Shown: positions 14,546-41,429 of the stretch, in pieces
How positions within the stretch are numbered: the stretch's first letter is position 1
Layout: the number at the start of each line of letters is the position of its first letter
From: Candidatus Bathyarchaeota archaeon
Lineage (GTDB): Archaea; Thermoproteota; Bathyarchaeia; Bathyarchaeales; Bathyarchaeaceae
DNA: 41,586 nucleotides
Assembly (NCBI GenBank): GCA_020352535.1
Contig: CP070679.1
Location: forward strand, 872,501 to 914,086
Direction: 5' to 3'
Made by a program: the position numbers and the translations under genes
Notes under the pieces: generated by a model
Seen by the model: the letters and a program-made list of their open reading frames with translations, nothing else
What the model was told of the DNA's origin: nothing
Databases searched by the model: none

Positions 14546-14550
14546 TCTGC

Positions 14551-26916: not shown

Positions 26917-28065
26917 ATGAGCGTAGCAATTGTGGGAGTTGGTCAGACACCCTTTCGCAGAAGCTGTGGTTCAAGCATCAGAGAGCTCTGTTTTGAGGCC
27001 TTTCGAGATACCTTGACTGACATAGACCTTGTTCCTAAGGGAATAGATGCTTCCATAATTTGCTCTGCTCCAGAGTATGATAAGCAGAGAAGCCCGGCAG
27101 GACTAATCTCCGAATATCTTGGCTTGAATCCTCAACCAACCTTCTATGCCGAGTCTATCTGCTCATCTAGCAGCACCGGCGTGAAAGTTGGCTACAGCTT
27201 CATCAAATCCAAGCTTCATGATGTAGTGGCGGTAATTGGTTTCCAGAAAATGTCAGAGATTTCCTCTGCAGAAGTACAAGAGCGGATGGGCCGAGGAGCA
27301 GATATCCAGTGGGAATCCCCCTTCGGTACGATGATGCCAGCTGGATATGCGATGTTCGCCAGAGCCCATATGCAGACATACGGGACCTCGGAGGAGCAAT
27401 TGGCAAGGGTCAAGGTGAAGAGTAGCAAGTACTCGTTTCTCAACCCTTTAGCCATGTATCGACGAGTTGTAACATTAGAGGAGTGTCTGAAAGCTCGAGT
27501 CATAGCTAATCCACTGAAGATGTTCGATTGTTGTGCTAACGCTGATGGTGCCTCTTGTGTGATTCTTGCGAGTGAAGAGAAAGCTAGGAAGATAACTGAT
27601 ACTCCAATTTGGGTAGCAGGGATTGGTGCTGCTAGCGACACCTTATCTACCACAGCTCGTACAAACCTGACCGGACTGACATGTGCAGTTGAGGCTGGAA
27701 GGCAGGCTTATAGGATGGCGAGGATAAAACCTGAAGATGTTGATGTTGCAGAGGTGCATGACTGCTTCACGATTGCTGAGATTATGGCCTGCGAGAATTT
27801 AGGCTTCTGCAAACCCGGCGAGGGCGGGAAACTAGTAGAAGACTCGCAGACATACATTGGAGGTAAGATTCCTGTGAATGTAGACGGTGGATTGCTATCG
27901 AAGGGGCATCCGATAGGTGCTACTGGGGGTTCCCAGATTCGAACGATTGTGCTTCAGTTGCAGGGGCAAGCTGGTAAGACACAGGTTGATGGCGCCGAGA
28001 TAGGATTAGTCCATAACATTGGAGGAATTGGATTATACGGTAATGTGACAATTCTACGAAGGTGA
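26917..28065 (+). CDS. Thiolase-fold protein (SCP-x/archaeal acetyl-CoA acetyltransferase-like)
   Basis: MSVAIVGVGQTPF, nucleophile region ESICSSSSTG, VHDCFT, GHPIGATG, HNIGG. Start moved to the ATG at 26917 from the TTG at 26878. Confidence 0.85.
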   Translation: MSVAIVGVGQTPFRRSCGSSIRELCFEAFRDTLTDIDLVPKGIDASIICSAPEYDKQRSPAGLISEYLGLNPQPTFYAESICSSSSTGVKVGYSFIKSKLHDVVAVIGFQKMSEISSAEVQERMGRGADIQWESPFGTMMPAGYAMFARAHMQTYGTSEEQLARVKVKSSKYSFLNPLAMYRRVVTLEECLKARVIANPLKMFDCCANADGASCVILASEEKARKITDTPIWVAGIGAASDTLSTTARTNLTGLTCAVEAGRQAYRMARIKPEDVDVAEVHDCFTIAEIMACENLGFCKPGEGGKLVEDSQTYIGGKIPVNVDGGLLSKGHPIGATGGSQIRTIVLQLQGQAGKTQVDGAEIGLVHNIGGIGLYGNVTILRR

Positions 28066-28484
28066 TCCTTGTGAGTTTCAGCAGTTTTGGGAAGATTGGC
28101 TATGTTTCAGAGACGAAAGTCGAGGATTTTGTTAGGTTCTTGGAGAAAGGAAAGATTATGGCGACGAAATGCCGTAGATGCGGAAAGCTGTATTTCCCTC
28201 CACGAGCGGATTGCCCCGACGATTTATCATCTGATGTTACTTGGCAGGAGTTGAGTGGACATTGCAAGCTACTTACCTTCACTACGGTTTATTTCGCCCC
28301 GACGGGCTTCCAGGATGATCTGCCCTATTCGCTTGCCCTTGTACAGTGTGAAGAGGGCGTAAAGGTTTTCGCGCCTTTCAGCAAAGATGTGGATGAAGGC
28401 AAGGTTCACATCGGCATGAATCTTAGACTTGCTCCTAAGAAGTTGCCAAATCGTCGAATCACGTATGAGTTAAAGCAGACATAA
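28062..28484 (+). CDS. DUF35 OB-fold/zinc-ribbon protein (thiolase partner)
   Basis: GKIMATKCRRCGKLYFPPRADCP zinc ribbon followed by an OB-like domain. The GTG start overlaps the thiolase stop (GTGA). Confidence 0.8.
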   Translation: MILVSFSSFGKIGYVSETKVEDFVRFLEKGKIMATKCRRCGKLYFPPRADCPDDLSSDVTWQELSGHCKLLTFTTVYFAPTGFQDDLPYSLALVQCEEGVKVFAPFSKDVDEGKVHIGMNLRLAPKKLPNRRITYELKQT

Positions 28485-28515: not shown

Positions 28516-29595
28516 ATGGGTCTCCGGGAATCAGTGAAATTCGGTGTTGAAGGCCCAAACTATCCTTGGGAAGCTGTCCGCGATATTGCCTTATTAGCTG
28601 AGAAAACAGGTTTTGACTCCTTCTGGATGCCAGATCATCTGGTTGCCACGGGGGTCAGGCGCTGGGATGCTTTGCATGCATGGGGCGCTCTCTGTGCTCT
28701 CGCAGTGCAAACAAAGCGAATCAAGCTGGCTACTGGAGTAAGCGATACTTTTCGCCATCATCCCGCATCATTGGCTCAGATGGCGGCAACATGTGATGTC
28801 CTGTCGAATGGTCGGGCAATACTTGGAATAGGAATTGGTGAGGCAATGAACCTAGTGCCGTTTGGCATCCCCTTTGACAAGCCAGTTGGACGAACGATTG
28901 AGGCTATTCAGATTATTCGAAGACTGTTTTCGGAGGATTTCGTAGATTTCAAGGGGGAGTATTATGAGCTGAAGCATGCTTTTCTTCGACCTAGACCTGT
29001 TGTTCCCCTCTCAGAAACCAAGAATCGATCAACTGTTCCAATTTTCATAGCAGCAAGCTCACCAAGGACTATGAAAGTGACTGCTCGATATGGAGATGGC
29101 TGGTTACCAGCAAACCTGACGCCGGACGAGTATAAAGACAATCTAAAGAAGATTCGGGAGAACGCGAAAGCGTTTCAGAGGGCACCTTCAAGCATCGAAC
29201 CTGCCCACTTCATGTACGTGGTTGTGGCCAATGATGTCGAGACTGCAAGAAAGGCGATTATGCCGACTGGTAAGATGATGTTGCTTTCAAGGCCACGGAT
29301 AATAGAGAAACTTGGATTTCAGCCTCCCAGCTATGACTTCGAGATGACATTCAAACTCGTTTTTCCACGCGATGGAGAAGCTTGGTTGACTAAATCGCGA
29401 GAGATTCCGGATGAGGTTGTGGAGAGGGCTCCATTTCTATGGGGCGAGCCTGATGACATAGCTGATAAGATTGACAAGTTCGTTGAAGCAGGCTGCAGCA
29501 ACTTCGTGCTTAATTTCCAGGTTTCGCGCAGATTGTTGAAGGAAACCTGCAAGCTATTCGCGGAGAAGGTCATGCCGCATTTCAGGGAAAAGTAA
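28516..29595 (+). CDS. LLM-class F420/flavin-dependent oxidoreductase (Mer-like)
   Basis: GFDSFWMPDHL, NGRAILGIGIGEAMN and IFIAASSPRTMKVTARYGDGWLP. It is a paralog-type relative of 4133-5065. Confidence 0.8.
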   Translation: MGLRESVKFGVEGPNYPWEAVRDIALLAEKTGFDSFWMPDHLVATGVRRWDALHAWGALCALAVQTKRIKLATGVSDTFRHHPASLAQMAATCDVLSNGRAILGIGIGEAMNLVPFGIPFDKPVGRTIEAIQIIRRLFSEDFVDFKGEYYELKHAFLRPRPVVPLSETKNRSTVPIFIAASSPRTMKVTARYGDGWLPANLTPDEYKDNLKKIRENAKAFQRAPSSIEPAHFMYVVVANDVETARKAIMPTGKMMLLSRPRIIEKLGFQPPSYDFEMTFKLVFPRDGEAWLTKSREIPDEVVERAPFLWGEPDDIADKIDKFVEAGCSNFVLNFQVSRRLLKETCKLFAEKVMPHFREK

Positions 29596-29622: not shown

Positions 29623-30606
29623 CTAGGAGGCCTTAAGTTTAGTTCCGCATCGTAGACAGTATTTTGATTCTTCCGGAAGGTATTCTGCGCCACATTTGTT
29701 GCACTTCTGCATGTATGGACCATGAGGAATCCGTGGGTCTCCACCTTCAGCGATGAATGCCCGAATTCTTTCCATGTTAACCTTTCGTTTCTGCTTGAAG
29801 GCCCACAAGCCTTCGGTCGGTTCAACAGATCCTATGTTGAGGGCAAACCAGGCTTTTCCATGCTCCCATGTGAGACGCCAGACCAGCTCTTTCCACCAAT
29901 TGTGATGGACCTTGAAATACCAAAGGCTGGATGGCGACAACTTCTTCATCCTATCTATGTACTCTTTCACTTTGGCGTCTAAGGAGTCCTTCGACACAAC
30001 CTCGTTTACGACGCCGTACTTGAGGGCTTCTTTTGCGTCTAGCTGTGAGCTTAGGAGAACCATCTCTGCTGATTTTTTAATACTCATGTGCAGAGGAAGC
30101 CATTGTGACAGTCCTCCAATAGAGGTCATGCCTACGCGGGGCCCAGGTGATATGAAGCGTGCATGGTCTGCAGCAATGGCGAGGTCGCAGCAGGCTACAA
30201 ACTCCCAGCCACCACCCGCGACTGCTCCGTTCACTCTGGCGATTACGGGCTTGCCGCAGTGCATTATCAGGTCGAAGACTCGACCGTAATATTCTCCCCA
30301 TTCCCAGAACTTATGTGGCTTTCGATTGTATATTTCGGCGTATTCGTGTACATTTCCGCCGGTGCAGAAAGCCTTGTCACCTACCCCTGTCATTACTATG
30401 AACTGGACAGTATCGTCGCCCATTGCCCTCTCGTAGCCAGCGCATATCTCCTTTAGGGTTCCAAGGACGTAGGAGTTCATCTCGTCAGAGTTGTTAATGG
30501 CGATACGGGCTGTGTGGTCATGCCAATCTGAATCATACTTGATGGTTCGCCACCTCTTTGGATTTTCTTCTGGATACCAGTCAAATTCTCTTCCTGCCAT
30601 GCCCAT
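29623..30606 (-). CDS. Crotonase-superfamily enzyme of the MenB/BadI/Oah-like subgroup with a C-terminal zinc ribbon
   Basis: VMTGVGDKAFCTGGN...PVIARVNGAVAGGGWEF...CDLAIAA. The C-terminal CNKCGAEYLPEESKYCLRCG is at about 29623-29715. Start set to the ATG at 30606 (MGMAGREFDW); the longer ORF to 30738 would overlap the divergent gene. Confidence 0.8.
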   Translation of the reverse strand: MGMAGREFDWYPEENPKRWRTIKYDSDWHDHTARIAINNSDEMNSYVLGTLKEICAGYERAMGDDTVQFIVMTGVGDKAFCTGGNVHEYAEIYNRKPHKFWEWGEYYGRVFDLIMHCGKPVIARVNGAVAGGGWEFVACCDLAIAADHARFISPGPRVGMTSIGGLSQWLPLHMSIKKSAEMVLLSSQLDAKEALKYGVVNEVVSKDSLDAKVKEYIDRMKKLSPSSLWYFKVHHNWWKELVWRLTWEHGKAWFALNIGSVEPTEGLWAFKQKRKVNMERIRAFIAEGGDPRIPHGPYMQKCNKCGAEYLPEESKYCLRCGTKLKAS

Positions 30607-30692
30607 CACGTCAACCCGAATTACTTTCCAAATATATTTAAGACTTGTTGGACGTGGAAATTGTATCAAGACGCCGCATCTAGAGTGGAAAA

Positions 30693-32204
30693 ATGGACAT
30701 CCAAACAGTCGTAGACTATCTAAAGCAGATAGTAACAACGGAACAGATTCTCACAGATCAGGAAGACCGCTATGTATATTCGTTTGAGAAGCTCTTTGAG
30801 GAAAAGAGCGCAGCGCCAGATATTATTGTCACCACGTCTTCACCTAGGGAAGCTCGAAGGATTTATGCAGTTGCTGAACATGAAGGCTTCACAGTAGCTA
30901 GGCGTGGGGAGATTTCGAATCCGCAAGATTTGAGGAGACCATTTGTACTAATTGACGACATCCCCATTCCTGAACTGAAGAGTATTCCGACAAGCAAAAG
31001 CGAAACCATCAGTATCTTGCAGGAAATCCGCAAAAGTGGGTATAGAAACCCTCAGAATCTCGCTTCTGCCATCAAGGCTCTGCTTTCAGGTCGGCGTCAG
31101 AGTCAATGCATGGAGTGCAGAACCTGCAGTGGCTATTGCACAATTGCTTCCTCATTCAAAAGTGTGGAGACATGGTCCTCAAAGGGACGAACCGTCGTGG
31201 TTCGGGGTCTCCAAGACGGAACGCTTCCGATATCCAAGAAAATTGCTGACATTCTATACACCTGCACAGAGTGTGGCCTGTGCTTTGCCCAGTGTTTTTC
31301 GGATCTTCAGGTTGACGAGGCTATACGAGTTGCCCGAAATAAGATTGCAGAAGAGGGGTTTGCACCAGAGGTTTTCCACACGGTCGCTGAGAACATTATG
31401 AGAACTGGCGACCCAGGTGCAGTGCCAGTGAAGCAGCGTCTTTTGTGGATGCAGGGCTTGTCTTCTCAGCAGCTGCCTGAAGAAGCTGAAGTGTTGTATT
31501 GGGTCGGTTGCACCGTGGCGAATAGAACGCCTAAGACTGCTGTAGCTCTGCTGAATATTCTGAATCAAGGAAAAGTTCGCTTCACGATACTCAACGAACA
31601 AGAGGGATGCTGTGGGTATGTTCTACTGGCGACAGGGCTTTGGGATAAGGCGAAGAAGGTCGCGGACGAAGTGTCGCTAAAGGTGAAGCGAATCGGTGTG
31701 TCAGCGCTCGTAACGCCTTGCGCTGGTTGTTACTACACCTTCAAGAAACTCTACCCTGAAATCCTAGGAGTTTCCCTTCCATGTGAAATCCTTCATTCAT
31801 CACACCTAATTGAGCGATTGGTCAACAATGGTAGGCTGAAACTGAAACCAATAGGTTTCACGGTAAGCTACCATGATCCTTGCTCGTTGGGTCGGCATAG
31901 CCAGGTCTTTGAGGCTCCCCGCAGCGTGTTGAGGGCAATACCTCGTCTTACACTAGTTGAAATGCCCTTGAACAGGCAGTCCGCAAGATGCTGTGGAGGT
32001 GGAGGTGGTTTATGGTCGTTTAACCATGAGGTCAGTATGGAGGCTGCCTCTTGGAGATTGAGGGATTTGGACCAATTGAAGAGTGATGTGTTAGCCACTG
32101 CGTGTCCGCTATGTCAGATGAACTTTCGATATACTGCAGCGCGACGAGGTGTCTCCCTTAAGGTTTGTGACATAGCTGAGATTGTGGAATCGGCGCTCGG
32201 TTAG
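30693..32204 (+). CDS. HdrD/GlpC/GlcF-like Fe-S oxidoreductase (2x[4Fe-4S] plus two CCG domains) with an extra N-terminal domain
   Basis: CMECRTCSGYC and CTECGLCFAQC ferredoxin motifs. CCG-type motifs VGCTV...CCGY and HDPCSLGR...CCGGGGG...CPLC. The N-terminal 130 aa or so resemble the start of a GlcD-type FAD-binding domain. Confidence 0.8.
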   Translation: MDIQTVVDYLKQIVTTEQILTDQEDRYVYSFEKLFEEKSAAPDIIVTTSSPREARRIYAVAEHEGFTVARRGEISNPQDLRRPFVLIDDIPIPELKSIPTSKSETISILQEIRKSGYRNPQNLASAIKALLSGRRQSQCMECRTCSGYCTIASSFKSVETWSSKGRTVVVRGLQDGTLPISKKIADILYTCTECGLCFAQCFSDLQVDEAIRVARNKIAEEGFAPEVFHTVAENIMRTGDPGAVPVKQRLLWMQGLSSQQLPEEAEVLYWVGCTVANRTPKTAVALLNILNQGKVRFTILNEQEGCCGYVLLATGLWDKAKKVADEVSLKVKRIGVSALVTPCAGCYYTFKKLYPEILGVSLPCEILHSSHLIERLVNNGRLKLKPIGFTVSYHDPCSLGRHSQVFEAPRSVLRAIPRLTLVEMPLNRQSARCCGGGGGLWSFNHEVSMEAASWRLRDLDQLKSDVLATACPLCQMNFRYTAARRGVSLKVCDIAEIVESALG

Positions 32205-32207
32205 TTC

Positions 32208-32693
32208 CTAGACTTGAACCATTCTTTTCATCAGGTCAGACAGCTTCTCAGCTGCAGCTCTTCTTTTCTTGAGGTTGACTGCCGTTGCGTCGAGATAGCG
32301 TAAGGCTTGAGGCTCGCAAAACTTCACGCAGAGAGGATTCCCGTCACAGAGATCGCATTTGAGGACTTTGCTGCTCTCAGTATCTACGTTGATACCCCCT
32401 AAGGGGCAGAATACAACGCAGAGTCTGCAGCCAACACATAAATCATAGTCGACTAGCACAGCACCCGTTTTATCATCTCTCTTCAGCGCATGCATTGGGC
32501 AGACAACCTCACACAGCGGGGTTTCGCATTGCTGGCAGACCATGGGAACGTAGAGGCCTGAAGTTTCCCATTTGACTGTGTGGATTCGAGCGCGATTGGG
32601 GTTGCAGACCTTCTCGTGATGGAGTGAGCACACAATCTCGCAGTTTCGACATCCCGAGCATTTCTCAGGGTCGATGAAGAGGATTTTCTGCAT
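32208..32693 (-). CDS. Polyferredoxin, four [4Fe-4S]-type Cys motifs (DmsB/AorA/BamC-like)
   Basis: CSGCRNCEIVC, CQQCETPLCEVVCP, CVGCRLCVVFCP and CDLCDGNPLCVKFC. The ATG at 32693 is preceded by GGAGGAACC, which overlaps the AOR stop. Confidence 0.85.
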   Translation of the reverse strand: MQKILFIDPEKCSGCRNCEIVCSLHHEKVCNPNRARIHTVKWETSGLYVPMVCQQCETPLCEVVCPMHALKRDDKTGAVLVDYDLCVGCRLCVVFCPLGGINVDTESSKVLKCDLCDGNPLCVKFCEPQALRYLDATAVNLKKRRAAAEKLSDLMKRMVQV

Positions 32694-32703
32694 CTGGTTC
32701 CTC

Positions 32704-34593
32704 CTAGACTTGATGAGAGGGTTCTTGGTCAAGATTTAGTTTCTCAAGGGTTTCCTTCTTTGGGACTCCATTTTCATCCCAGCCATGGAGTAGGTAGTAC
32801 TCATCTAGCATCTTCTTGAATCGTTCTCGATTGATTTTCTTGCCTTTCGCTATTGGCAGCCCAATTGGCGTTGCTTCGTCAAAGTAGCGGTCAGGTAGCC
32901 AATCATCTTTCCTAGAGAAGCCTTCTCTGAGATTAAACAGCCGTTCAATAGTGTATATTCGTTCGCCCACTTGCATCAGCTGGTCCTCTGAGAGCTGGAG
33001 GTCAGTAGTGAGGTAGATTAGCTTGGAGAACTCGTCCCATTTGGGTGCGTTAACTGAGCAGAAGACTGTTTGGAACTTGCAGATTCCGATAGAGTCTGTG
33101 ACTGCGTAGAGGCGTTCCTGCCATGCAACCATGTGGGCTTTTCCTTCGTAGGATGTGTAGTCAGCAGAGACGGGTACTCCGTAGATTTCTTCTAGGAGTT
33201 CCTCTGGAAGGCCATAGAGATCTATTGCTGGTCTGCTTCGTAAGTGGTCTGCTCCACGGGTTGAGGTAGCGATGTTGAGGGCTAGACTTGGGGTAGGGCG
33301 TTCATCGGAATGTAGGTTGCTCATCCCTTTGATTTGGATGGCGTAGGAGGCTGAATCCTTGCCTATCGCAGTGATGGCTGGTTTGAATCCATCGGCAAGA
33401 GTGCTCCCGAAGCCTTCTCGGTGGGCGATCTGTTTAATGAGTTTGAAGAGTGCATCTTCGTTTCCCCATGTAAGCTCTAGTCCTGCGGTGTCTTGTTTGT
33501 TGATGATTCCCTTTTCATAGAGTTCCATCGCCCATGCGATAAGACCACCTGTTTCGAGGGTGTCGAGTCCATACTTGTTAACAAGGTGGTTGGCAACGAG
33601 GATTGTGTCCATTTTCTTGCAGTCAACCATTGTGCCGAAGGCGCCAAGTGAAGTGTATTCAGGTCCTTCGCCGAATATCGGGGCATATGGGCCTTCCTTC
33701 AAGACGTATCGGTGCCGGCAGTGTACGCTGCATCCGTAGCAACCGGACATTCCAATCGTATATCGGTCCATGCTTTCCGGTTCGAGGTCCTCACCGTTCT
33801 CCAGCCGGTTCCGCTGAAAGTTTCTGGTTCGGATGAGCCCGGTGGTATTTGTGTTGCTGTAGATGATTAGGGTTCCCCATCTCGATTGTGCCTTCGCCCA
33901 ACGCGTGTTCAGAATCTTGTCATTCATCTCAAGGCTATATTCAATAAGCTCGTCAGGATGGGCGAACTCGATGTCTAGGGTGCCACGGGCAGCGATGGCT
34001 TTCAGATTTTTTGCTCCCATTATGCAGCCCATGCCTGTTCGACCTGCTGCATTCTTCATGCCGGTTCGGATGTTCGCGAATCGAACCTGCTTTTCGCCAG
34101 CGATTCCAATAACCAAGGATTTGACTTCATCATCTTCGGCATCATCCCTGATGATATCCTGTGTCTCGAACGTGTCCTTCTCCCAGAGATGTGTTGCATC
34201 GCGAATCTCGATTTGTCCGTCATTCACCCATAAGTAGGATGGCTTTTCAGCTTTCCCGGTAATCACCAAATGGTCGAAGCCAGCTAATCTTAGCTCTGGG
34301 GCGAAGAATCCGCCGATATTCGAGTCACCAACCGCGCCTGTCAGTGGAGACTTGGCAGCGATGTCGCATCGTCCGGAGCCGAGGGCTGGGATTCCGCAGA
34401 GCATACCAACTCCGATTAAGAGGATGTTTTGTGGGCTCAGCGGGTTAATTCTTGCCTCTAGGTGATTGTATAATAGATACATATCTATGCCCCTGCCACC
34501 GAGGTAAAGTCGCCTGAGGTCTTTTGGAATGGGTTTTGCGATGATGGTTCCTTGTGTTAGGTCAATGTAGGCGACTTTCCTCGTCCAAACCAT
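32704..34593 (-). CDS. aor: Aldehyde:ferredoxin oxidoreductase (AOR) family tungstopterin enzyme
   Basis: LGGRG, Fe-S motif CYGCSVHC, EGPEY, pterin motifs GLDTLETGG and DSIGICKF, and RGADHL. Start set to the ATG at 34593 (MVWTRKVAYIDLTQG), which aligns with the P. furiosus AOR N-terminus as remembered. Confidence 0.9.
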   Translation of the reverse strand: MVWTRKVAYIDLTQGTIIAKPIPKDLRRLYLGGRGIDMYLLYNHLEARINPLSPQNILLIGVGMLCGIPALGSGRCDIAAKSPLTGAVGDSNIGGFFAPELRLAGFDHLVITGKAEKPSYLWVNDGQIEIRDATHLWEKDTFETQDIIRDDAEDDEVKSLVIGIAGEKQVRFANIRTGMKNAAGRTGMGCIMGAKNLKAIAARGTLDIEFAHPDELIEYSLEMNDKILNTRWAKAQSRWGTLIIYSNTNTTGLIRTRNFQRNRLENGEDLEPESMDRYTIGMSGCYGCSVHCRHRYVLKEGPYAPIFGEGPEYTSLGAFGTMVDCKKMDTILVANHLVNKYGLDTLETGGLIAWAMELYEKGIINKQDTAGLELTWGNEDALFKLIKQIAHREGFGSTLADGFKPAITAIGKDSASYAIQIKGMSNLHSDERPTPSLALNIATSTRGADHLRSRPAIDLYGLPEELLEEIYGVPVSADYTSYEGKAHMVAWQERLYAVTDSIGICKFQTVFCSVNAPKWDEFSKLIYLTTDLQLSEDQLMQVGERIYTIERLFNLREGFSRKDDWLPDRYFDEATPIGLPIAKGKKINRERFKKMLDEYYLLHGWDENGVPKKETLEKLNLDQEPSHQV

Positions 34594-34604
34594 GCTCTCA
34601 TCAA

Positions 34605-34754
34605 CTACTCTCTTACCAAGCCACGGATTTTTGGCTGATCTGGGCGAGGCCATGAGATGCGGTATCGTGTCTTGCAATTGGGGCAGGTGCTCTCTGTAGA
34701 TTCAGCTGCCACTGGGAACCGTTTAAGACAGTTCAAACACCTCACATCACTCAT
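34605..34754 (-). CDS. Unannotated 49-aa zinc-ribbon protein
   Basis: Manual translation: MSDVRCLNCLKRFPVAAESTESTCPNCKTRYRISWPRPDQPKIRGLVRE (CxxC-x14-CxxC). GAGGAGTGG lies 5 nt upstream of the ATG. It fills the MoaD-AOR gap, 11 nt before the AOR ATG. Confidence 0.5.
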   Translation of the reverse strand: MSDVRCLNCLKRFPVAAESTESTCPNCKTRYRISWPRPDQPKIRGLVRE

Positions 34755-34767
34755 GAGCCACTCCTCA

Positions 34768-35049
34768 TTATCCTCCGCCAACAGGGATTGAAAGCATTAC
34801 GACATCATTGTTATTTAGCTTAGTGTACACGTCTCTTGTGACCTGTCCATTGATGGAGACAAGGAATTCCAAGGAGGTCTTACCTTCTCGCTGATCTACT
34901 ATTTGCTTGAAATCTTTCCCATACATTTGGGCTAGTTTATCCAGAAGGTGTTTCAATATTGCGGGTGAGTGAACTTCTTCAATAATTTCCCGTTTCCCCA
35001 CGATTTCTCGAAGGTTAGCATGCAGCAACACTTTAACCTGGATACTCAT
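34768..35049 (-). CDS. MoaD/ThiS-type beta-grasp (ubiquitin-like) protein with a C-terminal GG
   Basis: 93 aa: MSIQVKVLLHANLREIVG...VVMLSIPVGGG, with the length, pattern and di-glycine terminus of MoaD/SAMP proteins. Confidence 0.7.
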   Translation of the reverse strand: MSIQVKVLLHANLREIVGKREIIEEVHSPAILKHLLDKLAQMYGKDFKQIVDQREGKTSLEFLVSINGQVTRDVYTKLNNNDVVMLSIPVGGG

Positions 35050-35240
35050 GCATATGCACCGCTATGCGTGTCGATAGAACCTAGAGATGTCTTCGAGATA
35101 TAAGGGCTGGTCTGACACCTCCTGGAGAGTGGTATTCCGGCGTGAGAGTAGGTTCAGAATAGAATTGATCGATGGAGTGTCTTATGTCAGACAGATACTA
35201 TTATCAACTCTAGATTTCTATAAATTATATAGGGTCTGCA

Positions 35241-36257
35241 TTGGAAGTTAGACGATTACAACACATCAAGGGCGGGAGCTTCACCCTATCCTTGCCGCGA
35301 AATTGGGTTGGGAAGCATAGTCTTCATCGAGGGGACGGAGTAAGCGTATTTGAGGAAGAAGACGGATCGCTACGGCTTTCCCCTTTGAATATGGAGCACA
35401 AGGGAACTGAAGCAGTCTTGGCGGTAGCGGATTTTGCGGGAGTGCGCTCTCTCGAATACTGTGTCGGAACGTACTATATCCAAGGGGTCAATAGAATTCG
35501 AGTAACCTCGAAGAAGACGATTCCCGCGGATATGAAAAAGCGGCTTAAGCTGCTTCGCATGAACCTGCCTGGTGTCGAGGTTGCAGAGGAAAGGGCTGAT
35601 GCTATCGATTTTCATGTGATTATTGATCCAGCCGCCTTCCAGCTAAAAGACCTCATCGAAAAAACCTCGTCCTTCTCTCTCCACCTGCAGGAAGATGCCG
35701 TCAAATCCCTTCTGGAGAAAGACTTCCAGCTTGCTGATGAGGTGATTGAGCGAAGTAAGGAAGCCTTGCGGCACTATCGAATGACCATACGGCAGGTCGC
35801 CCTAGCCAGCTCCAACCGTGCTATCGCTCGAGAGGTTGGAGTCCGGAACTGCCGAGAATGTGTCACCTACGCTTTGATTGCTCGAGATCTAAACAGGTTA
35901 GTCTATCACTCATCATCAATTGCTACACATGTCCTCCTTCTGAAAGGCAAGGCGAAGATTAGTTCTGAGATTCTGGGATTGATACAAGACATATCTACAG
36001 TTGTTTATACGATGCAGATGGACACAATTCAAGCCTTTCTGAAGAAGGATATCAAGCTGGCCATCACTTCTATAGGAAAGATGCAGGATGTCCGACGGAT
36101 GGAAAAGGTGCTATTGACAGCTATTATGAAGATAGTTAAGGATGCTAATTTAGCAGTGGGGTTAAGCCACATTGCTCGAGACTTGCGTCGAATTGCAGGC
36201 TACGCTGTGGCGATTGCCGATGATGCTATGAATCGAACTCTCGCCCCGACACCTTAA
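35241..36257 (+). CDS. AbrB/SpoVT-like N-terminal domain plus tandem PhoU domains (archaeal PhoU-type regulator)
   Basis: TTG start. GGSFTLSLPRNWVGKHSLHRGDGVSV (swapped-hairpin-like) is followed by two helical repeats ending ...ARDLRRIAGYAVAIADDAMN, typical of PhoU. Confidence 0.7.
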   Translation: MEVRRLQHIKGGSFTLSLPRNWVGKHSLHRGDGVSVFEEEDGSLRLSPLNMEHKGTEAVLAVADFAGVRSLEYCVGTYYIQGVNRIRVTSKKTIPADMKKRLKLLRMNLPGVEVAEERADAIDFHVIIDPAAFQLKDLIEKTSSFSLHLQEDAVKSLLEKDFQLADEVIERSKEALRHYRMTIRQVALASSNRAIAREVGVRNCRECVTYALIARDLNRLVYHSSSIATHVLLLKGKAKISSEILGLIQDISTVVYTMQMDTIQAFLKKDIKLAITSIGKMQDVRRMEKVLLTAIMKIVKDANLAVGLSHIARDLRRIAGYAVAIADDAMNRTLAPTP

Positions 36258-36304
36258 GTTTTATATGACGCCCTAAATCATCTGCAAGCACGAGAGGAAA
36301 TCAG

Positions 36305-37318
36305 ATGAAGGCTGCAGTTTTTCATGGGCCTGATCAACCACTCAAACTAGAAGATGTTCCAATACCCGAAATCAGCGCTGAGGAAGCTCTTATTAAAATT
36401 GCTGCCTGCGGTGTTTGCCACACTGATCTCCACTACTTGGAGGGTGTTCCGACTTTTCAAAAGCCACCGCTGATTCTAGGGCACGAAGCATCAGGCATAG
36501 TGACGCAATTGGGTGAAAAAGTAACGAATGTCAAAGAAAAGGATCGGGTGCTCATCCCACCGGTGTTGACTTGTGGTTCCTGTCGCAACTGTCGATTAGG
36601 TCGAGAGAACCTATGCCGCAATATCATTATGATTGGAAACAGCATCGATGGAGCCTACGCAGAGTATGCCAAGATTCCAGCGAAAGACCTCGTTAAATTA
36701 CCTGCTGAGATTCCGTTGGAAGAAGCGTCAATTATCTCTGACGCAATGTCCACCCCGTTTCATGCATTGAAGAATCGTGCTGGCGTCCGACCTGGCGACT
36801 CTGTCGTAATCTACGGAGTTGGTGGCGTCGGCTTGAATGCAGTTCAGATTGCTGCAGCTTTAGGTGCTTTCGTGATTGCTGTAGATAAGGTGGATGCAAA
36901 GCTAGAGATGGCACGAGACTTGGGAGCTTCTGAAACGATTAATGTTGATGCTGAAAACCCAGTGAAGGCAGTGAAGAAGATTACTGGAGGAGGGGCTGAC
37001 ATTGCGATTGAAGCTATTGGCATCCCCGAGGTTATGAAGATGGCCTATGATAGTGTCCGATGGGGTGGACGGGCGGTGATTGTTGGGTACACCCACAAGG
37101 ACCTGACGATTAGTGCAGCACGTTTGATGTTTCGGGAAATCGAGATTTGCGGGTCTCTCGGCTGTCGAATCGTGGATTATCCTCCATTGGTGGATATGAT
37201 TAGGCGTGGGCGCCTTAAGCTTCTGGTCTCTGATAAGATGCCGCTTGACAAGATTAATGAAGCTTTGGAGATGCTTAAGCAGGGGCAGATCAAGACGAGG
37301 GCAATCGTTCTGCCCTGA
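36305..37318 (+). CDS. Zinc-dependent medium-chain alcohol dehydrogenase family protein
   Basis: CGVCHTDLH, GHEASG, structural-Zn CGSCRNCRLGRENLC and the Rossmann motif GVGGVGL. Confidence 0.85.
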   Translation: MKAAVFHGPDQPLKLEDVPIPEISAEEALIKIAACGVCHTDLHYLEGVPTFQKPPLILGHEASGIVTQLGEKVTNVKEKDRVLIPPVLTCGSCRNCRLGRENLCRNIIMIGNSIDGAYAEYAKIPAKDLVKLPAEIPLEEASIISDAMSTPFHALKNRAGVRPGDSVVIYGVGGVGLNAVQIAAALGAFVIAVDKVDAKLEMARDLGASETINVDAENPVKAVKKITGGGADIAIEAIGIPEVMKMAYDSVRWGGRAVIVGYTHKDLTISAARLMFREIEICGSLGCRIVDYPPLVDMIRRGRLKLLVSDKMPLDKINEALEMLKQGQIKTRAIVLP

Positions 37319-37319
37319 T

Positions 37320-38093
37320 CTACTTCTCTTTCCAAACGGGCTTTCGTTTCTCGAGAAAGGCCTTCAAACCTTCAACAGCATCTTCCGTTGTGATTAGCTT
37401 GTTCAGGTAGATCTCAGTTACACCCTCCAAGGCTTCCTTGAAGTCTTTGTGTAAGCCTTGATGGACTGCTTCTTTGATGAGTGGAAGCACGGCGGAGCTC
37501 TTTGTGCGGAATCGGTCAATCAGTTTGCTAGTGGCAGCTTCAAACTCTTCTACTTTGTAGACATTGTTGACTAGACCGATCTCCTTTGCTTCCGTTGCGG
37601 GTATGGTGTTGCCTAGCAGAACCATCTCTAATGCTTTTTTCCTGCCGACTAGTCTTGGTAGCAGTACAGTTGCGACTGTGGGGATTGCTCCTACCTTCAC
37701 TTCTTGCTGCCCAAATTGGGCATCTTCTGAGGCTACGATGATGTCGCAGGCTGCGGCTAGTTCGCAGCCTCCGCCATAAGCAAAACCGCGGACAGCTGCT
37801 ATTGTTGCCTTCTTGATGGATATGAGTGTGTAGAAGACATTGTGGAAGGCTTCCAAGGTTTTTTCAATCTTGTCTGGGAGGTGGTCTTCGATTTCCACGC
37901 CAGCAGAGAAGGCTTTTTCTCCTGTACCGGTTATGACCAAAACTTTGAGGGCCTCGTCTTTCTGAACATCATCTAGAGCTTTGCTGATCTCTTGTAGTGT
38001 TTCAACATTCAAAACGTTGAGTGGTGGACGATTGATGGTGATTGTGGCAGCACCATTGTCTTTAGTGAAGACTATGTTCTTGTATTTAGCCAT
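37320..38093 (-). CDS. Enoyl-CoA hydratase/isomerase (crotonase) family protein
   Basis: 257 aa: ITINRPPLNVLN, GEKAFSAGVEI, AAVRGFAYGGGCELAAACDI and the C-terminal EGLKAFLEKRKPVW. Confidence 0.85.
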   Translation of the reverse strand: MAKYKNIVFTKDNGAATITINRPPLNVLNVETLQEISKALDDVQKDEALKVLVITGTGEKAFSAGVEIEDHLPDKIEKTLEAFHNVFYTLISIKKATIAAVRGFAYGGGCELAAACDIIVASEDAQFGQQEVKVGAIPTVATVLLPRLVGRKKALEMVLLGNTIPATEAKEIGLVNNVYKVEEFEAATSKLIDRFRTKSSAVLPLIKEAVHQGLHKDFKEALEGVTEIYLNKLITTEDAVEGLKAFLEKRKPVWKEK

Positions 38094-38192: not shown

Positions 38193-38921
38193 TTATTTCA
38201 TCTTCAGTGACTCGATAATGATTGATTGAGGTCTGATTAGTGACTCTTTGAAGTAGGGGTGTTGTTTTACTGATTCCGTGTCTGGTCTAGGCTCCACCAG
38301 TCTTCTCACGAGCAGCTTGTTGAGGTATAGTGAATGGAAATACGCTGTTAGTGTTCGATGTATTGATGTGGTGGTGAACTGTTTTGTGAGTCTTTTCATG
38401 TTCCAGTCGATGTGATACTCCAGTGTTTTGAAGTAGTTTTCAGCTGCTGGGGCTCTCTTTTCACCAATGGGAATCTTCTCGAAGCATGGGTGGGGGATTG
38501 AGAAGATGAAGTGCCCACAGTTCTTCAGGACTCTCGCAACCTCTGCAACCGCCTTTTCGTAGTCTTCTATATCCTGGAGGGCCATGAAGCAGGTTACAAG
38601 GTCAAACTGGTTTCCTGCTAATCCGTTAAGGTTTGTAGCATCCATAGCTTCATAGTGGATGCCCAGCTTCTCCTGCGCTTCTTCTTGCTTAGCATATGTA
38701 ATCAGTTTCTCGGAGAAATCTACTCCTGTGACTTCTCCTCCCTTTCTGGCGAGGATTCGGGTGTTGAAGCCTTCGCCGCAGGCGAGGTCCAGTACTCTCT
38801 TTCCTCTAATTTCGCCTATCAGCTTGAAGGTTGCTGGGTTGTTCACTCCAGTTCTGTTGTAGTCCTTTCCTGTTCTCACAAAGTCTGCCCAAGCGTCTGC
38901 TGCTTCATTCCATTCTTGCAT
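38193..38921 (-). CDS. Class I SAM-dependent methyltransferase
   Basis: Start moved to the ATG at 38921 (MQEWNEAADAWADF). Motif I VLDLACGEG, plus DLVTCFMALQDI and LKNCGHFIFS. Confidence 0.75.
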   Translation of the reverse strand: MQEWNEAADAWADFVRTGKDYNRTGVNNPATFKLIGEIRGKRVLDLACGEGFNTRILARKGGEVTGVDFSEKLITYAKQEEAQEKLGIHYEAMDATNLNGLAGNQFDLVTCFMALQDIEDYEKAVAEVARVLKNCGHFIFSIPHPCFEKIPIGEKRAPAAENYFKTLEYHIDWNMKRLTKQFTTTSIHRTLTAYFHSLYLNKLLVRRLVEPRPDTESVKQHPYFKESLIRPQSIIIESLKMK

Positions 38922-39031
38922 TATTTCGTGTTTGCCAGTCAAGGATATCCCTGCTGAATCAATAGGTATACTACATTTCATAAGCGTCTTTACATTTGAA
39001 GGAAATCTTAGTATGAGCTGGCAGCGTAGGC

Positions 39032-39253
39032 CTAGCAGGTTGGACTCTTTCGATGGCACTTGCACTTGTTCTCTTCTATGGAAAACTCTAGATCCATTAT
39101 CATGTCTTGGACTTCTTCAACTCCCTCTAAGTCTTTTCTCTTTGTTGCCTGTTCCAAGGCTTGCTGGGCTCCGGCTCTAACTTCTAGACTGGGCTCTTTT
39201 CCACTCTTGAACCGCTTGTACTTTGTTCGTAAGCTGTCGATATGAGTTTTCAA
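39032..39253 (-). CDS. Candidate 73-aa helical protein with a Cys-rich tail
   Basis: Part of track ORF 39032-39319. A TTG at 39253 is preceded by GGTG. The sequence is ...KTHIDSLRTKYKRFKSGKEPSLEVRAGAQQALEQATKRKDLEG...EENKCKCHRKSPTC. No family recognised. Confidence 0.25.
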   Translation of the reverse strand: MKTHIDSLRTKYKRFKSGKEPSLEVRAGAQQALEQATKRKDLEGVEEVQDMIMDLEFSIEENKCKCHRKSPTC

Positions 39254-39301
39254 GGAGCACCAACAAAGAGAATCATAAAAGCGAAATAAATCTTGATGTG
39301 A

Positions 39302-39319
39302 GTGCCAGTTACCTGGCAC
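39302..39319 (-). terminator. Perfect 7-bp hairpin with a GNRA-type loop, followed by a T-rich tract
   Basis: Minus-strand RNA GUGCCAG-GUAA-CUGGCAC, 40 nt after the peptide stop. TTTATTTCGCTTTTATGATT follows on the minus strand (39290-39271). Confidence 0.4.
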
Positions 39320-39358
39320 AAGACGAAGGAGTTGCGCAGTGCGCTAATGGCACGTTGT

Positions 39359-39433
39359 TTAGCAGGAGCTGCAACAACTTCCGCGCTTTTCAGCCTTCTC
39401 TTCTTTCTCTTTGACTTTCTTTTCTTCGTTCAC
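39359..39433 (-). CDS. Candidate 24-aa peptide with a Lys/Glu-rich N-terminus and a GSCCSSC C-terminus
   Basis: AGGAGGTG (39447-39440), a 6-nt spacer, then GTG: (M)NEEKKVKEKEEKAEKRGSCCSSC, stop TAA 39361-39359. A hairpin and a T-rich tract lie downstream. It is below the track cutoff. Confidence 0.35.
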   Translation of the reverse strand: MNEEKKVKEKEEKAEKRGSCCSSC

Positions 39434-39492
39434 AAGTCTCACCTCCTAACGTATTCCAGCGTAATAGGTTCCAATGGAATATAATCCATCGG

Positions 39493-39504
39493 AATATATA
39501 TAAA
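39493..39504. promoter_or_regulatory. TATA-like box in the divergent PadR/small-peptide intergenic region
   Basis: aatatatataaa lies about 36-47 nt upstream of the PadR ATG (39540). It is flanked by ATGGA-N6-TCCAT (39474-39489) and a repeated GGAATATA (39476-39483 and 39491-39498). Confidence 0.35.
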
Positions 39505-39539
39505 CATTTCGCCACTTAGACAAAGATGAGGAACTGGCA

Positions 39540-39905
39540 ATGTGGTGTTGTTGTGGACCAAGCAATCTCTCACCGATTCAATTCTTGGTGCTTCTCCTTC
39601 TATCCAAGCAGCCGATGCATGGGTATGAGTTATTCAAGATGATCAATGACCAGTTCGGTGAGAAGTGGAAGTTGAATCCTGGGGCCATCTACAAGACATT
39701 AGCCAAGCTAGTGGAAAAACAATTCATCACAGCAGAAGAGACTGTGAAAGGCAAGACGATCTATCAACCCACAGCGAAAGGCAGAGCGGCCCTTACGAAA
39801 TGCATTGAGTGGTCTGAAGATTGGATAGAATTCACCAGAAGCTGCTCTTCCCCAGGCTCTAAAACTGAGTCCAAGCCCAGCGCCGGGTCAAGCGAGAAAC
39901 CCTGA
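39540..39905 (+). CDS. PadR-family transcriptional regulator
   Basis: LSPIQFLVLLLLSKQPMHGYELFKMINDQFGEKWKLNPGAIYKTLAKLVEKQFI is the PadR wHTH signature. The N-terminus MWCCCGPS is unusual. Confidence 0.8.
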   Translation: MWCCCGPSNLSPIQFLVLLLLSKQPMHGYELFKMINDQFGEKWKLNPGAIYKTLAKLVEKQFITAEETVKGKTIYQPTAKGRAALTKCIEWSEDWIEFTRSCSSPGSKTESKPSAGSSEKP

Positions 39906-39995
39906 TGCACTAATTATACGCAAGCTTTCCCTGAATGGGTTTCGCGAAAGATAAAAGAGGGAGAGCCCAGTCTGCATTGACTGGAGATTCTGCAC

Positions 39996-40460
39996 ATGTC
40001 TAATCAGAATTTGGTGGGTAGATGCGGCCTTTACTGTGGAGCTTGTGGGATTTATCGCGCCTACAAGGATGGGGGCGAATATCGGCGACGCGTCGCTGAG
40101 TTCTTCAAGTGTCCTCCGGAGAAGGTGCGTTGTGAGGGTTGTCAGGTGTTGACGGCGCAGTGTTGGGGTCAGGACTGCAAGATGGTGCAATGCTTGAATG
40201 CTAAGGGATTGAGCTTTTGTTACGAGTGTCCTGACTTTGAGAATCATGGTTGTGAGAAGTTCGAGAAGTTCTCCAAGGACTACTTGAAAGAGGATGATGT
40301 GGATTTGAAGGCGAACCTCGCCCGCATCAAGGCTGGTGAAGTTGATGCGTGGCTTGAGGAGTCGGAGCGTAAATTCCGGTGTCCTTATTGTGGGAAGCCG
40401 CTACCGACCAACTCGTTTCGGAAGCGTTGTTATCACTGCAGCAGAGAGCTCACAGGCTGA
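39996..40460 (+). CDS. DUF3795-like Cys-rich (zinc/Fe-S) protein
   Basis: The N-terminal CGLYCGACGIYRAY plus multiple further CxxC pairs (CEGC, CYEC, CPYC, CYHC) match the remembered DUF3795 pattern. Confidence 0.65.
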   Translation: MSNQNLVGRCGLYCGACGIYRAYKDGGEYRRRVAEFFKCPPEKVRCEGCQVLTAQCWGQDCKMVQCLNAKGLSFCYECPDFENHGCEKFEKFSKDYLKEDDVDLKANLARIKAGEVDAWLEESERKFRCPYCGKPLPTNSFRKRCYHCSRELTG

Positions 40461-40470
40461 AATGCGTATA

Positions 40471-40593
40471 TTACTTGGGTCTGTCTTGGGTTCTCCTGCC
40501 TCGTAGGGCATAACCCAAGACGACAGCTGCTGCCCCCACCACGATGACTATTGCTACAACTGTCCAGGTTGGGAAGGGTCTGATTTTGATCAT
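40471..40593 (-). CDS. Candidate 40-aa single-TM peptide
   Basis: Manual translation MIKIRPFPTWTVVAIVIVVGAAAVVLGYALRGRRTQDRPK. It is co-oriented with and 77 nt downstream of the radical SAM gene. The RBS is weak. Confidence 0.25.
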   Translation of the reverse strand: MIKIRPFPTWTVVAIVIVVGAAAVVLGYALRGRRTQDRPK

Positions 40594-40670
40594 GTCAACC
40601 GCCCTAACTAGCCCTTTCTAGGGAGATAAGGATAACGTCACCGTGAGCTGGAACCTGTGAGTGGCTGCAA

Positions 40671-41429
40671 TTACTCTGGTCGTCGTTGAGCGGTTTCGCG
40701 TTTGTCAAAAGGCTTGACTCTCAGCTTCCTGGAGTCGTAGTATGATATGTAGTTCATTCGGTTGAAGGCTTCAGATACCCTTCCTAGCTCGCTTGGGCTT
40801 AGTTTCGGTTTGTTTGCTCTGGATGGCGTGTTGATTTGCACTTCATTAGGCTGGATTTCCTCAGCAATTGCTCTCATCTCCTCTGCGTATCGTTTGTTTT
40901 GCTCAACGAACATCATCTGTAGTGCGTAGGTTTTGCGGAATTCCTGCCTGAACTTCTTCATACCATCTAGCATAAAGTGGAAGTTGATATCTGGATGGGG
41001 CTGATCGATTTCTTGGAAGAGGCGCTCATTTGGTGCATCAAGTTTTGCTACAACGATGTCAGCTTGGGCTAGTTCCTTTCTTACTTCTTGTTTGTCCATT
41101 AATGATGAGTTGGTCAGCACGGCCACCGGGAGTTCCGTACAATCTCGGACGACTTCAATTAGCTGCCCTAATCTTTGGTTTAGGGTCGGCTCTCCTGAGC
41201 CAGAGAAGGTGGCAATATTAGCGACTTGGGAGATGTACGGATATCTGCTCAGTTCTTCCTTCAGCGTCTTAGGGTCTGCAAATGCTTCTCGTTCTGCGAT
41301 TCTTCTCGTGGTCCTTCCGCATTGGCAGTAAATGCAGTCGAAGGAGCAGACTTTCATTTCGCAGATAGAGTCTATCCCTAGTGAGATTCCAAGTCTCCAA
41401 GATGCAACTGGACCATAGACAGCTTGCAC
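40671..41429 (-). CDS. Radical SAM protein (short, no SPASM domain), unknown function
   Basis: YGPVASWRLGISLGID...CSFDCIYCQCG (CxxxCxxC), then the SGSGEPTL SAM-binding motif. GTG start preceded by GAGGGT. Confidence 0.8.
   Translation of the reverse strand: MQAVYGPVASWRLGISLGIDSICEMKVCSFDCIYCQCGRTTRRIAEREAFADPKTLKEELSRYPYISQVANIATFSGSGEPTLNQRLGQLIEVVRDCTELPVAVLTNSSLMDKQEVRKELAQADIVVAKLDAPNERLFQEIDQPHPDINFHFMLDGMKKFRQEFRKTYALQMMFVEQNKRYAEEMRAIAEEIQPNEVQINTPSRANKPKLSPSELGRVSEAFNRMNYISYYDSRKLRVKPFDKRETAQRRPE

Follow-up and report, generated by a model that had tools for sequence, protein, structure and literature searches.

Does an archaeon of the Bathyarchaeia carry a tungsten-dependent (class II) benzoyl-CoA reductase? 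The question is raised by a gene island on a stretch of 41,586 nucleotides from Candidatus Bathyarchaeota archaeon (GenBank assembly GCA_020352535.1, contig CP070679.1, positions 872,501 to 914,086 of the forward strand), here called the window and numbered from its first letter. A sequence-only reading had listed six family types between positions 29,623 and 38,093, namely a tungstopterin enzyme of the aldehyde oxidoreductase (AOR) family, a polyferredoxin, an HdrD-like protein, a crotonase, a zinc-dependent medium-chain dehydrogenase (Zn-ADH) and an enoyl-CoA hydratase. It had proposed that the first three form the core of a class II (Bam-type) reductase and that the others are Dch-, Had- and Oah-like ring enzymes. 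Pfam searches and sequence motifs bore out all six families at these coordinates. By sequence comparison, the tungsten subunit is AOR-like, unlike BamB, and is not a benzoyl-CoA reductase. In related Bathyarchaeia the same island is linked to genes for a benzoyl-CoA reductase of class I, and the island in the window is probably a copy of it without the reductase.

The tungsten subunit groups with aldehyde oxidoreductases

The tungsten subunit was compared with the sequences of solved structures in the PDB, with scores given in bits. The best-scoring structure was the AOR of P. furiosus (1AOR, 360 bits), followed by 9MQX (357 bits), AorB (8C0Z, 324 bits) and FOR (302 bits). BamB (4Z3W) was matched with 251 bits at about 30% identity, in an alignment split into three pieces. 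A phylogeny and a residue check had been proposed in the sequence-only reading as the way to recognise a BamB. In a simple neighbour-joining tree of 18 sequences the clade of the window protein was placed beside AOR sensu stricto (P. furiosus AOR, AorB, 9mqx) and far from BamB, and the residue check found nothing specific to BamB.

Residues were mapped on a sequence alignment, anchored on the iron-sulfur motif and the flanking conserved blocks, of nine members of the clade, three AOR structures and three BamB sequences (4Z3W and two orthologues). Cys322 is conserved in all BamB/YdhV proteins and lacking in every other AOR/WOR clade according to a 2025 review (PMC12096430). This column held Cys in 4Z3W and the two true BamB orthologues, Gly in the window protein, and Ala, Asp or Asn in its relatives. 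The BamB-specific insertion (INITQIEGQFPQAP..., after the region of residue 440) was missing from the window protein. Thr243, Glu311, Tyr312, His448 and Tyr452 were kept in the alignment, and the four [4Fe-4S] cysteines (equivalents of Cys288, 291, 295 and 494) were conserved. The AFOR_N and AFOR_C domains and the four cluster cysteines place the protein in the AOR/WOR family, and none of the marks of BamB (Cys322, the insertion, closest similarity to BamB) was found. A Cys about 33 residues after the iron-sulfur motif (MVDCKK) was considered as a tungsten ligand and rejected; it lies off the Cys322 column and is Asn in locus L034.

Locus L034, from a Spirochaete metagenome-assembled genome (MAG), contains genuine bamBCD genes, and the BamB encoded there scored 1280 bits against 4Z3W. 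This BamB and the Had (469 bits, cut-off 339) and Oah (531 bits, cut-off 464) of the same locus were used as references. A few kb at most separate the bamBCD genes, the true had and oah and a dch-like gene from the local member of the window-type AOR clade, which is flanked by paaK, iorAB and a gene for an AorC/PadH-like FAD subunit (L031 was also noted). Since the clade coexists with true bamBCD in L034, it is a distinct paralogue. With a tungsten subunit that groups with AORs, Gly at the Cys322 position and a ferredoxin of AorA type, the proposal that AOR, ferredoxin and HdrD-like protein form a class II core is refuted.

Related Bathyarchaeia carry a class I reductase beside the same island

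The nearest relatives of the window proteins were found in Bathyarchaeia MAGs, and genes for EF-1alpha and ribosomal protein S7 lie close by, which identifies the window as archaeal. A check of synteny in related archaeal MAGs, another suggestion of the sequence-only reading, showed that the gene association recurs in related Bathyarchaeia. In L001, the closest relative of the same gene order, the bzd reductase genes lie directly beside the hydratase gene. The shared island genes of L001/L086 were 61-87% identical to those of the window (AOR 79%) and had the same order over the overlap, with the bzd genes next to the genes for the hydratase, the Zn-ADH, a regulator, the AOR, the ferredoxin, the HdrD-like protein and the crotonase. 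BzdQ of L001/L086 scored 383 bits (cut-off 380), BzdO 550 bits (cut-off 449) and BzdN 445 bits, just below its cut-off of 454. For bzdNOPQ no tblastn match was found in the window at E <1e-3, nor did tblastn find HGD-D or BcrAD genes there.

A metagenome scan with the BzdO of L001 gave 80 bzd loci with 77-100% identity. Counting only loci with enough flank, 32 of 58 had a gene like that of the 257-amino-acid (aa) hydratase of the window (ECH257) upstream of bzdN; the crotonase or the Zn-ADH was present in 11 of 37 and the AOR clade in 10 of 27. The linkage of island and bzd genes survives rearrangement in L112, L137 and L144. In L084 a PaaK-type aryl-CoA ligase forms an operon with a crotonase, a Zn-ADH and a hydratase whose best models were Oah, Had and Dch, respectively; this crotonase was 63% and this Zn-ADH 51% identical to the window proteins, and the operon adjoins a 2-oxoacid:ferredoxin oxidoreductase and an HGD-D gene. 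In L085 the crotonase gene follows an AMP-ligase gene, two HGD-D genes and a BcrAD gene. L083, with a crotonase 87% identical to that of the window, has the window gene order from the Zn-ADH to the housekeeping genes beyond the acyl-CoA dehydrogenase (ACAD); three unrelated genes separate its ferredoxin gene from the HdrD-like gene, and the locus ends inside the Zn-ADH gene, so that the bzd side is not covered.

Beyond bzdQ, L086 encodes (13045-15864, + strand) a 94-aa BzdM-like ferredoxin with 2x[4Fe-4S] and a 744-aa flavoprotein with NuoG-like, Fer4_20 and Pyr_redox_2 regions (NuoG/GltD-like), which is likely the NAD(P)H:ferredoxin reductase of the class I enzyme. Thiolase/DUF35 genes, a second crotonase gene and a gene for 3-hydroxyacyl-CoA dehydrogenase lie further downstream. 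The AOR had also been considered as a dedicated electron donor of the class I reductase, and this idea was downgraded because L086 has its own BzdM-like ferredoxin and flavoprotein. Open reading frame (ORF) translations and Pfam confirmed that HdrA-like and NuoEFG-like genes of the BamE-I type are missing from the window, as had been stated from sequence alone, and no MvhD-like ORF was found there either. The sequence-only reading had accounted for this gap by a different or unlocated electron-input module of the class II enzyme. The relatives use the ATP-dependent class I reductase instead, and the missing module is thus explained differently. Class I bcr genes together with oah, dch and had have already been published for Bathyarchaeota MAGs (PMC6472368; see also PMC12694404).

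The tungsten enzyme belongs to an atypical clade with conserved partners

The tungsten subunit and the genes around it are as follows.

30693-32204, + strand: HdrD-like Fe-S protein (Pfam CCG in two copies, E 9e-30, and Fer4_8)
32208-32693, - strand: four-cluster polyferredoxin subunit, AorA/Wor5S type (four CxxCx(2-6)CxxxC motifs)
32704-34593, - strand: tungstopterin subunit of the AOR/WOR clade, 629 aa (AFOR_N E 4e-73, AFOR_C E 1.5e-120)
34605-34754, - strand: unannotated 49-aa zinc-ribbon ORF (11 nt upstream of where the AOR gene starts)
34768-35049, - strand: ThiS/MoaD-like small protein, 93 aa, with C-terminal GGG (translation; Pfam ThiS)
35241-36257, + strand: AbrB/MazE-like regulator with PhoU domain, divergent from the AOR operon (Pfam MazE_antitoxin, PhoU)

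The sequence-only reading named the first three of these and overlooked the other three, all of them within the span of its six families.

In every clade member examined, Glu313 was replaced by Thr and Tyr427 by Ser. Glu313, Tyr427 and His448 are described as universally conserved in known AORs, and changes in the second shell go along with new activity in WOR5/ASOR and with lost activity in WOR4 (PMC12096430). Of the second-shell set of AOR sensu stricto, the window protein has Thr243 and His448, with Glu313 and Tyr427 replaced. All 120 close homologues from a protein search had the motif EGPEYT, as did 69 of the 80 ORFs that clustered with the AOR in the loci; the remainder were mostly truncated, and two were second, paralogous AORs in which the motif differs. 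Identity within the clade came to 73-82% for Bathyarchaeia and Asgard members and to 54-60% for the majority of bacterial loci (50% in one truncated locus), the bacterial members coming from Anaerolineae, Desulfobacteraceae and others. These proteins appear to form an uncharacterised clade of the AOR/WOR family, with AOR sensu stricto as its sister group.

The context of the clade was analysed in 80 genome loci. The ferredoxin gene follows the AOR gene in about 69 of them. In 17 bacterial loci the ferredoxin gene is followed by one for a FAD/NAD and Fer4 oxidoreductase, PaaK is nearby in 14, and IOR is also found nearby. A like logic of IOR, PaaK and FAD subunit is followed by AorABC in phenylalanine degradation. 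Genes for BcrAD ATPases were found near the clade in 18 loci and HGD-D genes in 16, in both domains.

A conserved cluster around the AOR clade was also observed in Asgard archaea (L007-L015, L018) and in Anaerolineae and related Chloroflexota (L022-L033, L038, L069, L077). It comprises an AMP-forming CoA ligase, a thiolase, an HGD-D protein, a BcrAD-type ATPase and an ApbA/PanE-like reductase, to which the Asgard loci add MaoC and an HdrD-like protein and the Anaerolineae loci ACAD, EtfAB, FixCX and an ADP-forming acyl-CoA synthetase. The cluster looks like a pathway of the 2-hydroxyacyl-CoA-dehydratase type common to the two domains.

Against solved structures, the ferredoxin scored 142 bits with 9mqx_E, 140 bits with AorA (8c0z_C), 102 bits with the small subunit of WOR5 and 56 bits with BamC. 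The HdrD-like protein has [4Fe-4S] motifs (CxxCxxCxxxC) at residues 139 and 191 and CCG domains at residues 306 and 433, and thus belongs to the CCG proteins of HdrD type. It was 31% identical to true BamD over 369 aa, and its best NCBIfam model was TfrB with 185 bits (cut-off 385). An N-terminal domain of about 135 aa is conserved in the AOR-linked archaeal HdrD-like orthologues only and is missing from BamD. Of 23 archaeal loci, 19 had an HdrD-like gene within 10 kb of the AOR-ferredoxin pair, in most cases right next to it. Three arrangements occur: downstream and convergent (Bathyarchaeia), upstream on the same strand (Asgard archaea), and downstream on the same strand (the Nitrososphaerota-labelled L017 and the Nezhaarchaeales locus L019). 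By eye, the first approximately 70 residues of the N-terminus (30693-31100, + strand) look like the beginning of a GlcD-type FAD-binding domain, a likeness that suggests an origin in a fusion of GlcD-GlcF/LdhH type, with no Pfam match in support.

The zinc-ribbon ORF encodes MSDVRCLNCLKRF...CPNCKTRYRISW...KIRG, with a CxxC...CxxC arrangement. With tblastn its homologues were found beside the AOR gene in 87 loci of archaea and bacteria (E down to 1e-22), sharing the motif RCLNC...CPxC..[YW]RI[SA]W...K[IV]RG. No Pfam family matched it above threshold. The public gene call runs the AOR to 657 aa across this ORF and so masks it. The zinc-ribbon protein may be a small subunit or a maturation factor of the AOR clade. 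The ThiS/MoaD-like ORF is conserved upstream of the AOR gene in Bathyarchaeia and Asgard loci, and its product could be a sulfur carrier for synthesis of the tungsten cofactor. The PhoU-type regulator is kept at the same position in Bathyarchaeia.

The CoA-ester genes resemble ring-cleavage enzymes below the family cut-offs

The six island genes alternate between the strands and make up at least four transcription units, and the island is therefore not one operon. The grouping goes beyond chance, as the gene set recurs in related Bathyarchaeia loci. The remaining genes of the island and its flanks are the following.

25256-26782, + strand: ACAD, 508 aa, with C-terminal extension (three ACAD Pfam domains)
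26878-28065, + strand: SCP-x/archaeal-type thiolase (Thiolase_C_1 E 8e-47; NF004720 431 bits, cut-off 420)
28062-28484, + strand: DUF35 protein (ChsH2-type Zn-ribbon and OB fold), thiolase partner (Pfam zf-ChsH2, OB_ChsH2_C)
28516-29595, + strand: luciferase-like (F420-type, LLM) oxidoreductase (Bac_luciferase E 4e-67)
29623-30606, - strand: crotZn, a crotonase of the MenB/BadI/Oah subgroup with C-terminal zinc ribbon, candidate ring-cleaving hydrolase (ECH_1 E 1e-41)
36305-37318, + strand: Zn-ADH, candidate Had-like hydroxyacyl-CoA dehydrogenase (best NCBIfam model Had)
37320-38093, - strand: ECH257, 257-aa crotonase/enoyl-CoA hydratase, candidate Dch-like hydratase (supported only by synteny with bzdN in relatives)
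38193-41429: methyltransferase, PadR, DUF3795 and radical-SAM genes, at the position of bzdNOPQ in relatives

The curated NCBIfam cut-offs are 464 bits for Oah (TIGR03200, a model of 360 positions), 338.65 for Had (TIGR03201) and 292.5 for Dch (TIGR03189). The top-ranked model of crotZn was Oah with 141 bits, a partial match over model positions 38-212 that does not reach the cut-off, followed by MenB (127 bits) and BadI (123 bits); in the PDB only relatives of MenB type were found. CrotZn carries FCTGGN at residue 80 and a CNKC...CLRC tail, and in BLASTP it was 41% identical to the true Oah of L034 over 170 aa of the N-terminal half. Its family is a separate one with generic names, has members of about 310-330 aa and occurs in archaea and in several phyla of bacteria; orthologues adjoin bzdNOPQ or HGD-D/BcrAD genes and aryl-CoA ligases. 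The top-ranked model of the Zn-ADH was Had (236.7 bits, below the cut-off); it was 34% identical to the true Had of L034, and copies with 84-85% identity lie beside bzdNOPQ in L086, L091, L095, L099 and L101. For ECH257 the top model was generic (PRK05809, short-chain enoyl-CoA hydratase, 211 bits), and Dch, which was not the top model, gave 153 bits, below its cut-off. ECH257 shared 36% identity with the L034 hydratase, which is Dch-like but does not reach the Dch cut-off either, and the orthologues of ECH257 upstream of bzdN were 50-72% identical to it.

As the scores lie below the family cut-offs, the substrates of crotonase, Zn-ADH and hydratase were read from context only. The context tells more here than the HMM scores do. 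The claim of Dch/Had/Oah-like ring enzymes is upheld in part: the context (adjacency to bzd genes, the operon with a ligase) and the best models of crotonase and Zn-ADH, Oah and Had, agree with it, and all three proteins stay below the cut-offs. Their role as Oah/Had/Dch-like enzymes is supported by context and is a prediction.

ACAD, thiolase and DUF35 had been placed upstream of the cluster and were indeed found there, together with the F420-type LLM oxidoreductase. The ACAD matched NCBIfam models at sub-threshold level only (acryloyl-CoA reductase 250 bits, glutaryl-CoA dehydrogenase 182 bits, cyclohexane-1-carbonyl-CoA dehydrogenase 181 bits) and is syntenic in L083 and L020. DUF35 is always paired with the thiolase in relatives. 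The oxidoreductase matched several F420 LLM subfamilies below cut-off and is located next to the crotonase in L001, L083 and L099. No counterpart of this gene (28516-29595) was seen in bacterial benzoyl-CoA clusters, and a second luciferase-like F420-type oxidoreductase is encoded in the window at 4133-5065 (+ strand).

A reductase-less island and the rival explanations

Taken as a whole, the island is probably best explained as a reductase-less copy of a catabolic island that many Bathyarchaeia share, with two modules. The window has no bzd genes, which makes it a reductase-less copy of a pathway known from Bathyarchaeia. The first module would be the tungsten enzyme operon, with the genes for the ThiS/MoaD-like protein, the 49-aa zinc ribbon, the AOR-family subunit and the four-cluster ferredoxin. 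Its enzyme would oxidise aldehydes, probably aromatic ones (benzaldehydes, arylacetaldehydes), to acids for CoA-dependent catabolism, and the polyferredoxin would hand the electrons on, in archaea to the neighbouring HdrD-like protein and in bacteria to the FAD/NAD subunit. In the second module the hydratase (Dch-like), the Zn-ADH (Had-like) and crotZn would convert a dearomatised or alicyclic acyl-CoA into an open-chain product, which ACAD and thiolase/DUF35 would degrade; the F420-type oxidoreductase is grouped with these last genes. We infer this second module from best-model matches and conserved synteny. Entry of a cyclohexanecarboxylate-type substrate via the ACAD, with no ring reductase on the contig, is a possible variant.

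Several observations weigh against this explanation. Crotonase, Zn-ADH and hydratase scored well below the Oah, Had and Dch cut-offs, and the alignment of the crotonase with Oah covers the N-terminal half only. Neither an aryl-CoA ligase nor a ring reductase was found in the window, and the pathway may therefore be incomplete or serve another substrate. Since the clade is without Glu313 and Tyr427, plain aldehyde oxidation is not assured. A large part of the synteny in Bathyarchaeia was seen among rather close relatives and may partly reflect shared ancestry.

The scores below all three cut-offs, the short-chain enoyl-CoA hydratase model of ECH257 and the absence of a ring reductase and an aryl-CoA ligase from the window would also fit an ordinary juxtaposition, as would the Anaerolineae and Asgard clade members in fermentation-type clusters for amino acids or 2-hydroxyacids (ACAD, EtfAB, FixCX, ACD). 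The AOR would then be an enzyme of peptide fermentation that detoxifies aldehydes from 2-oxoacid oxidoreductases beside a generic beta-oxidation cluster, which we consider unlikely; that the crotonases and the Zn-ADH act on straight or branched acyl-CoAs and not on ring compounds seems similarly doubtful. ECH257 orthologues are tightly and specifically located upstream of bzdN in 32 of 58 loci, crotZn and Zn-ADH orthologues share an operon with a PaaK-type ligase, the crotonase falls in the C-C-cleaving MenB/BadI/Oah subgroup, and the linkage is retained in the three rearranged loci. The sequence-only reading had kept an ordinary AOR next to generic beta-oxidation genes as its conservative alternative; the AOR-like nature of the enzyme agrees with it, whereas the two missing catalytic second-shell residues do not.

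Those residues are replaced in all members examined, and changes in the second shell elsewhere go with new chemistry (WOR5/ASOR) or lost activity (WOR4), which points in another direction. A previously undescribed tungsten complex that does not carry out plain aldehyde oxidation may be made up of zinc ribbon, AOR-clade subunit and four-cluster ferredoxin, joined in archaea by the HdrD-like protein. It could exchange low-potential electrons with radical enzymes of the benzoyl-CoA reductase or 2-hydroxyacyl-CoA-dehydratase type, or catalyse a thiol/disulfide-coupled reaction or reduction at the CCG clusters. A small conserved zinc-ribbon protein is particular to the clade, the HdrD-like gene is adjacent in three independent arrangements (Bathyarchaeia, Asgard archaea, L017 and L019), and BcrAD ATPase and HGD-D genes recur near the clade in both domains. 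However, broad-spectrum AORs are the sister group of the clade, and Thr243, His448, Glu311, Tyr312 and Tyr452 are retained in it. Its bacterial members have an AorABC-like FAD/NAD partner and the IOR/PaaK surroundings that typically go with aldehyde oxidation, a ferredoxin and a ferredoxin-reducing flavoprotein are already dedicated to the bzd island of L086, and complex formation is putative; we regard such a complex as improbable. If it exists, BamBCD would be its cousin in architecture and may have evolved from a complex of this kind. That AOR, ferredoxin and HdrD-like protein are themselves an archaeal class II core of BamBCD type, working with Dch, Had and Oah and a further electron input, is hardly credible. 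The three families do parallel BamB, BamC and BamD, a full-length alignment of the HdrD-like protein with true BamD gives 31% identity, the association of AOR and HdrD-like genes is conserved in archaea, and the island is tied to the benzoyl-CoA pathway in relatives. Against this stand the missing Cys322 and BamB insertion together with five retained second-shell or neighbouring residues of AORs, the higher scores with AORs than with BamB, the AorA-like ferredoxin with four clusters, the HdrD-like gene on the opposite strand (with three unrelated genes between it and the AOR-ferredoxin pair in L083), the complete class I reductase of the relatives with its own ferredoxin system, and the coexistence of the clade with real bamBCD in L034.

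Preferring the reductase-less island of two modules, we conclude that an AOR gene beside genes for a polyferredoxin, an HdrD-like protein and crotonases is no evidence of archaeal class II benzoyl-CoA reduction, which removes a tempting false positive; MAG annotations that name such genes bamB should check Cys322. The result agrees with the published metagenomic inference that Bathyarchaeia use an ATP-dependent class I reductase, and shows that there are lineages whose lower-pathway island has no reductase. As the class I pathway has already been reported from metagenomes of Bathyarchaeia, what is new is the unusual AOR clade with its partners. Widespread and highly conserved (55-80% identity, archaea and bacteria), this clade is a target for tungsten-enzyme biochemistry.

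Other genes in the window

A heliorhodopsin gene is located at 1172-2023 (+ strand; Pfam PF18761, 312 bits) and is adjoined by a gene for a SOUL heme-binding protein at 537-1058 (- strand). A protein of 1330 aa encoded at 8619-12611 (- strand) has long helical-repeat (SNAP/Sel1-like) regions and a C-terminal ATPase domain of KaiC/RecA type. Rfam and tRNA scans found no RNA element in the island; a tRNA-Thr at 13140-13232 (- strand) has a length of 93 nt, consistent with an archaeal intron.

Comparison with known systems

Like BamBCD of Geobacter metallireducens (4Z3W), the window has an AOR-family tungsten subunit with conserved cluster cysteines, followed by a polyferredoxin, and an HdrD-like protein with 2x[4Fe-4S]/2xCCG nearby. 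Unlike BamBCD, it is without Cys322, the BamB insertion and the BamE-I genes, and its ferredoxin has four clusters and scored 56 bits with BamC. The HdrD-like protein differs from BamD in the extra N-terminal domain of about 135 aa and in convergent transcription.

With AorABC of Aromatoleum aromaticum (8C0Z) and with 9MQX the window shares a tungsten subunit matched at 324-357 bits and a ferredoxin of AorA type (140-142 bits), and bacterial clade members have, as in AorABC, an FAD/NAD protein as third subunit and neighbours from aromatic catabolism (IOR, PaaK). It differs from both in the replacement of Glu313 by Thr and of Tyr427 by Ser and in the gene order, with the tungsten subunit before the ferredoxin. 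Archaeal clade members have an HdrD-like protein instead of the FAD subunit, and the conserved 49-aa zinc-ribbon ORF upstream is a further difference. The AOR of P. furiosus (1AOR) has in common with the window protein Thr243, Glu311, Tyr312, His448, Tyr452 and the iron-sulfur cysteines, but is a homodimer without a ferredoxin subunit, and the catalytic Glu313 and Tyr427 are absent from the window protein.

The island of L001/L086 is like the bzd clusters of Azoarcus/Aromatoleum, Ferroglobus placidus and Bathyarchaeota MAGs (PMC6472368), with bzdNOPQ, a small ferredoxin and a ferredoxin-reducing flavoprotein, and with hydratase, Zn-ADH, a crotonase of MenB/Oah type and beta-oxidation genes together. 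The window differs from such clusters in lacking bzdNOPQ and its ferredoxin system, in lower-pathway enzymes far below the Dch, Had and Oah cut-offs, and in a crotonase with a different C-terminal half that contains a zinc ribbon. Although crotZn is without the C-terminal region of Oah/BamA and forms its own family, it shares the KAFCTGGN..EYAE motif with Oah/BamA, BadI and MenB and is similar to MenB and BadI over its full length.

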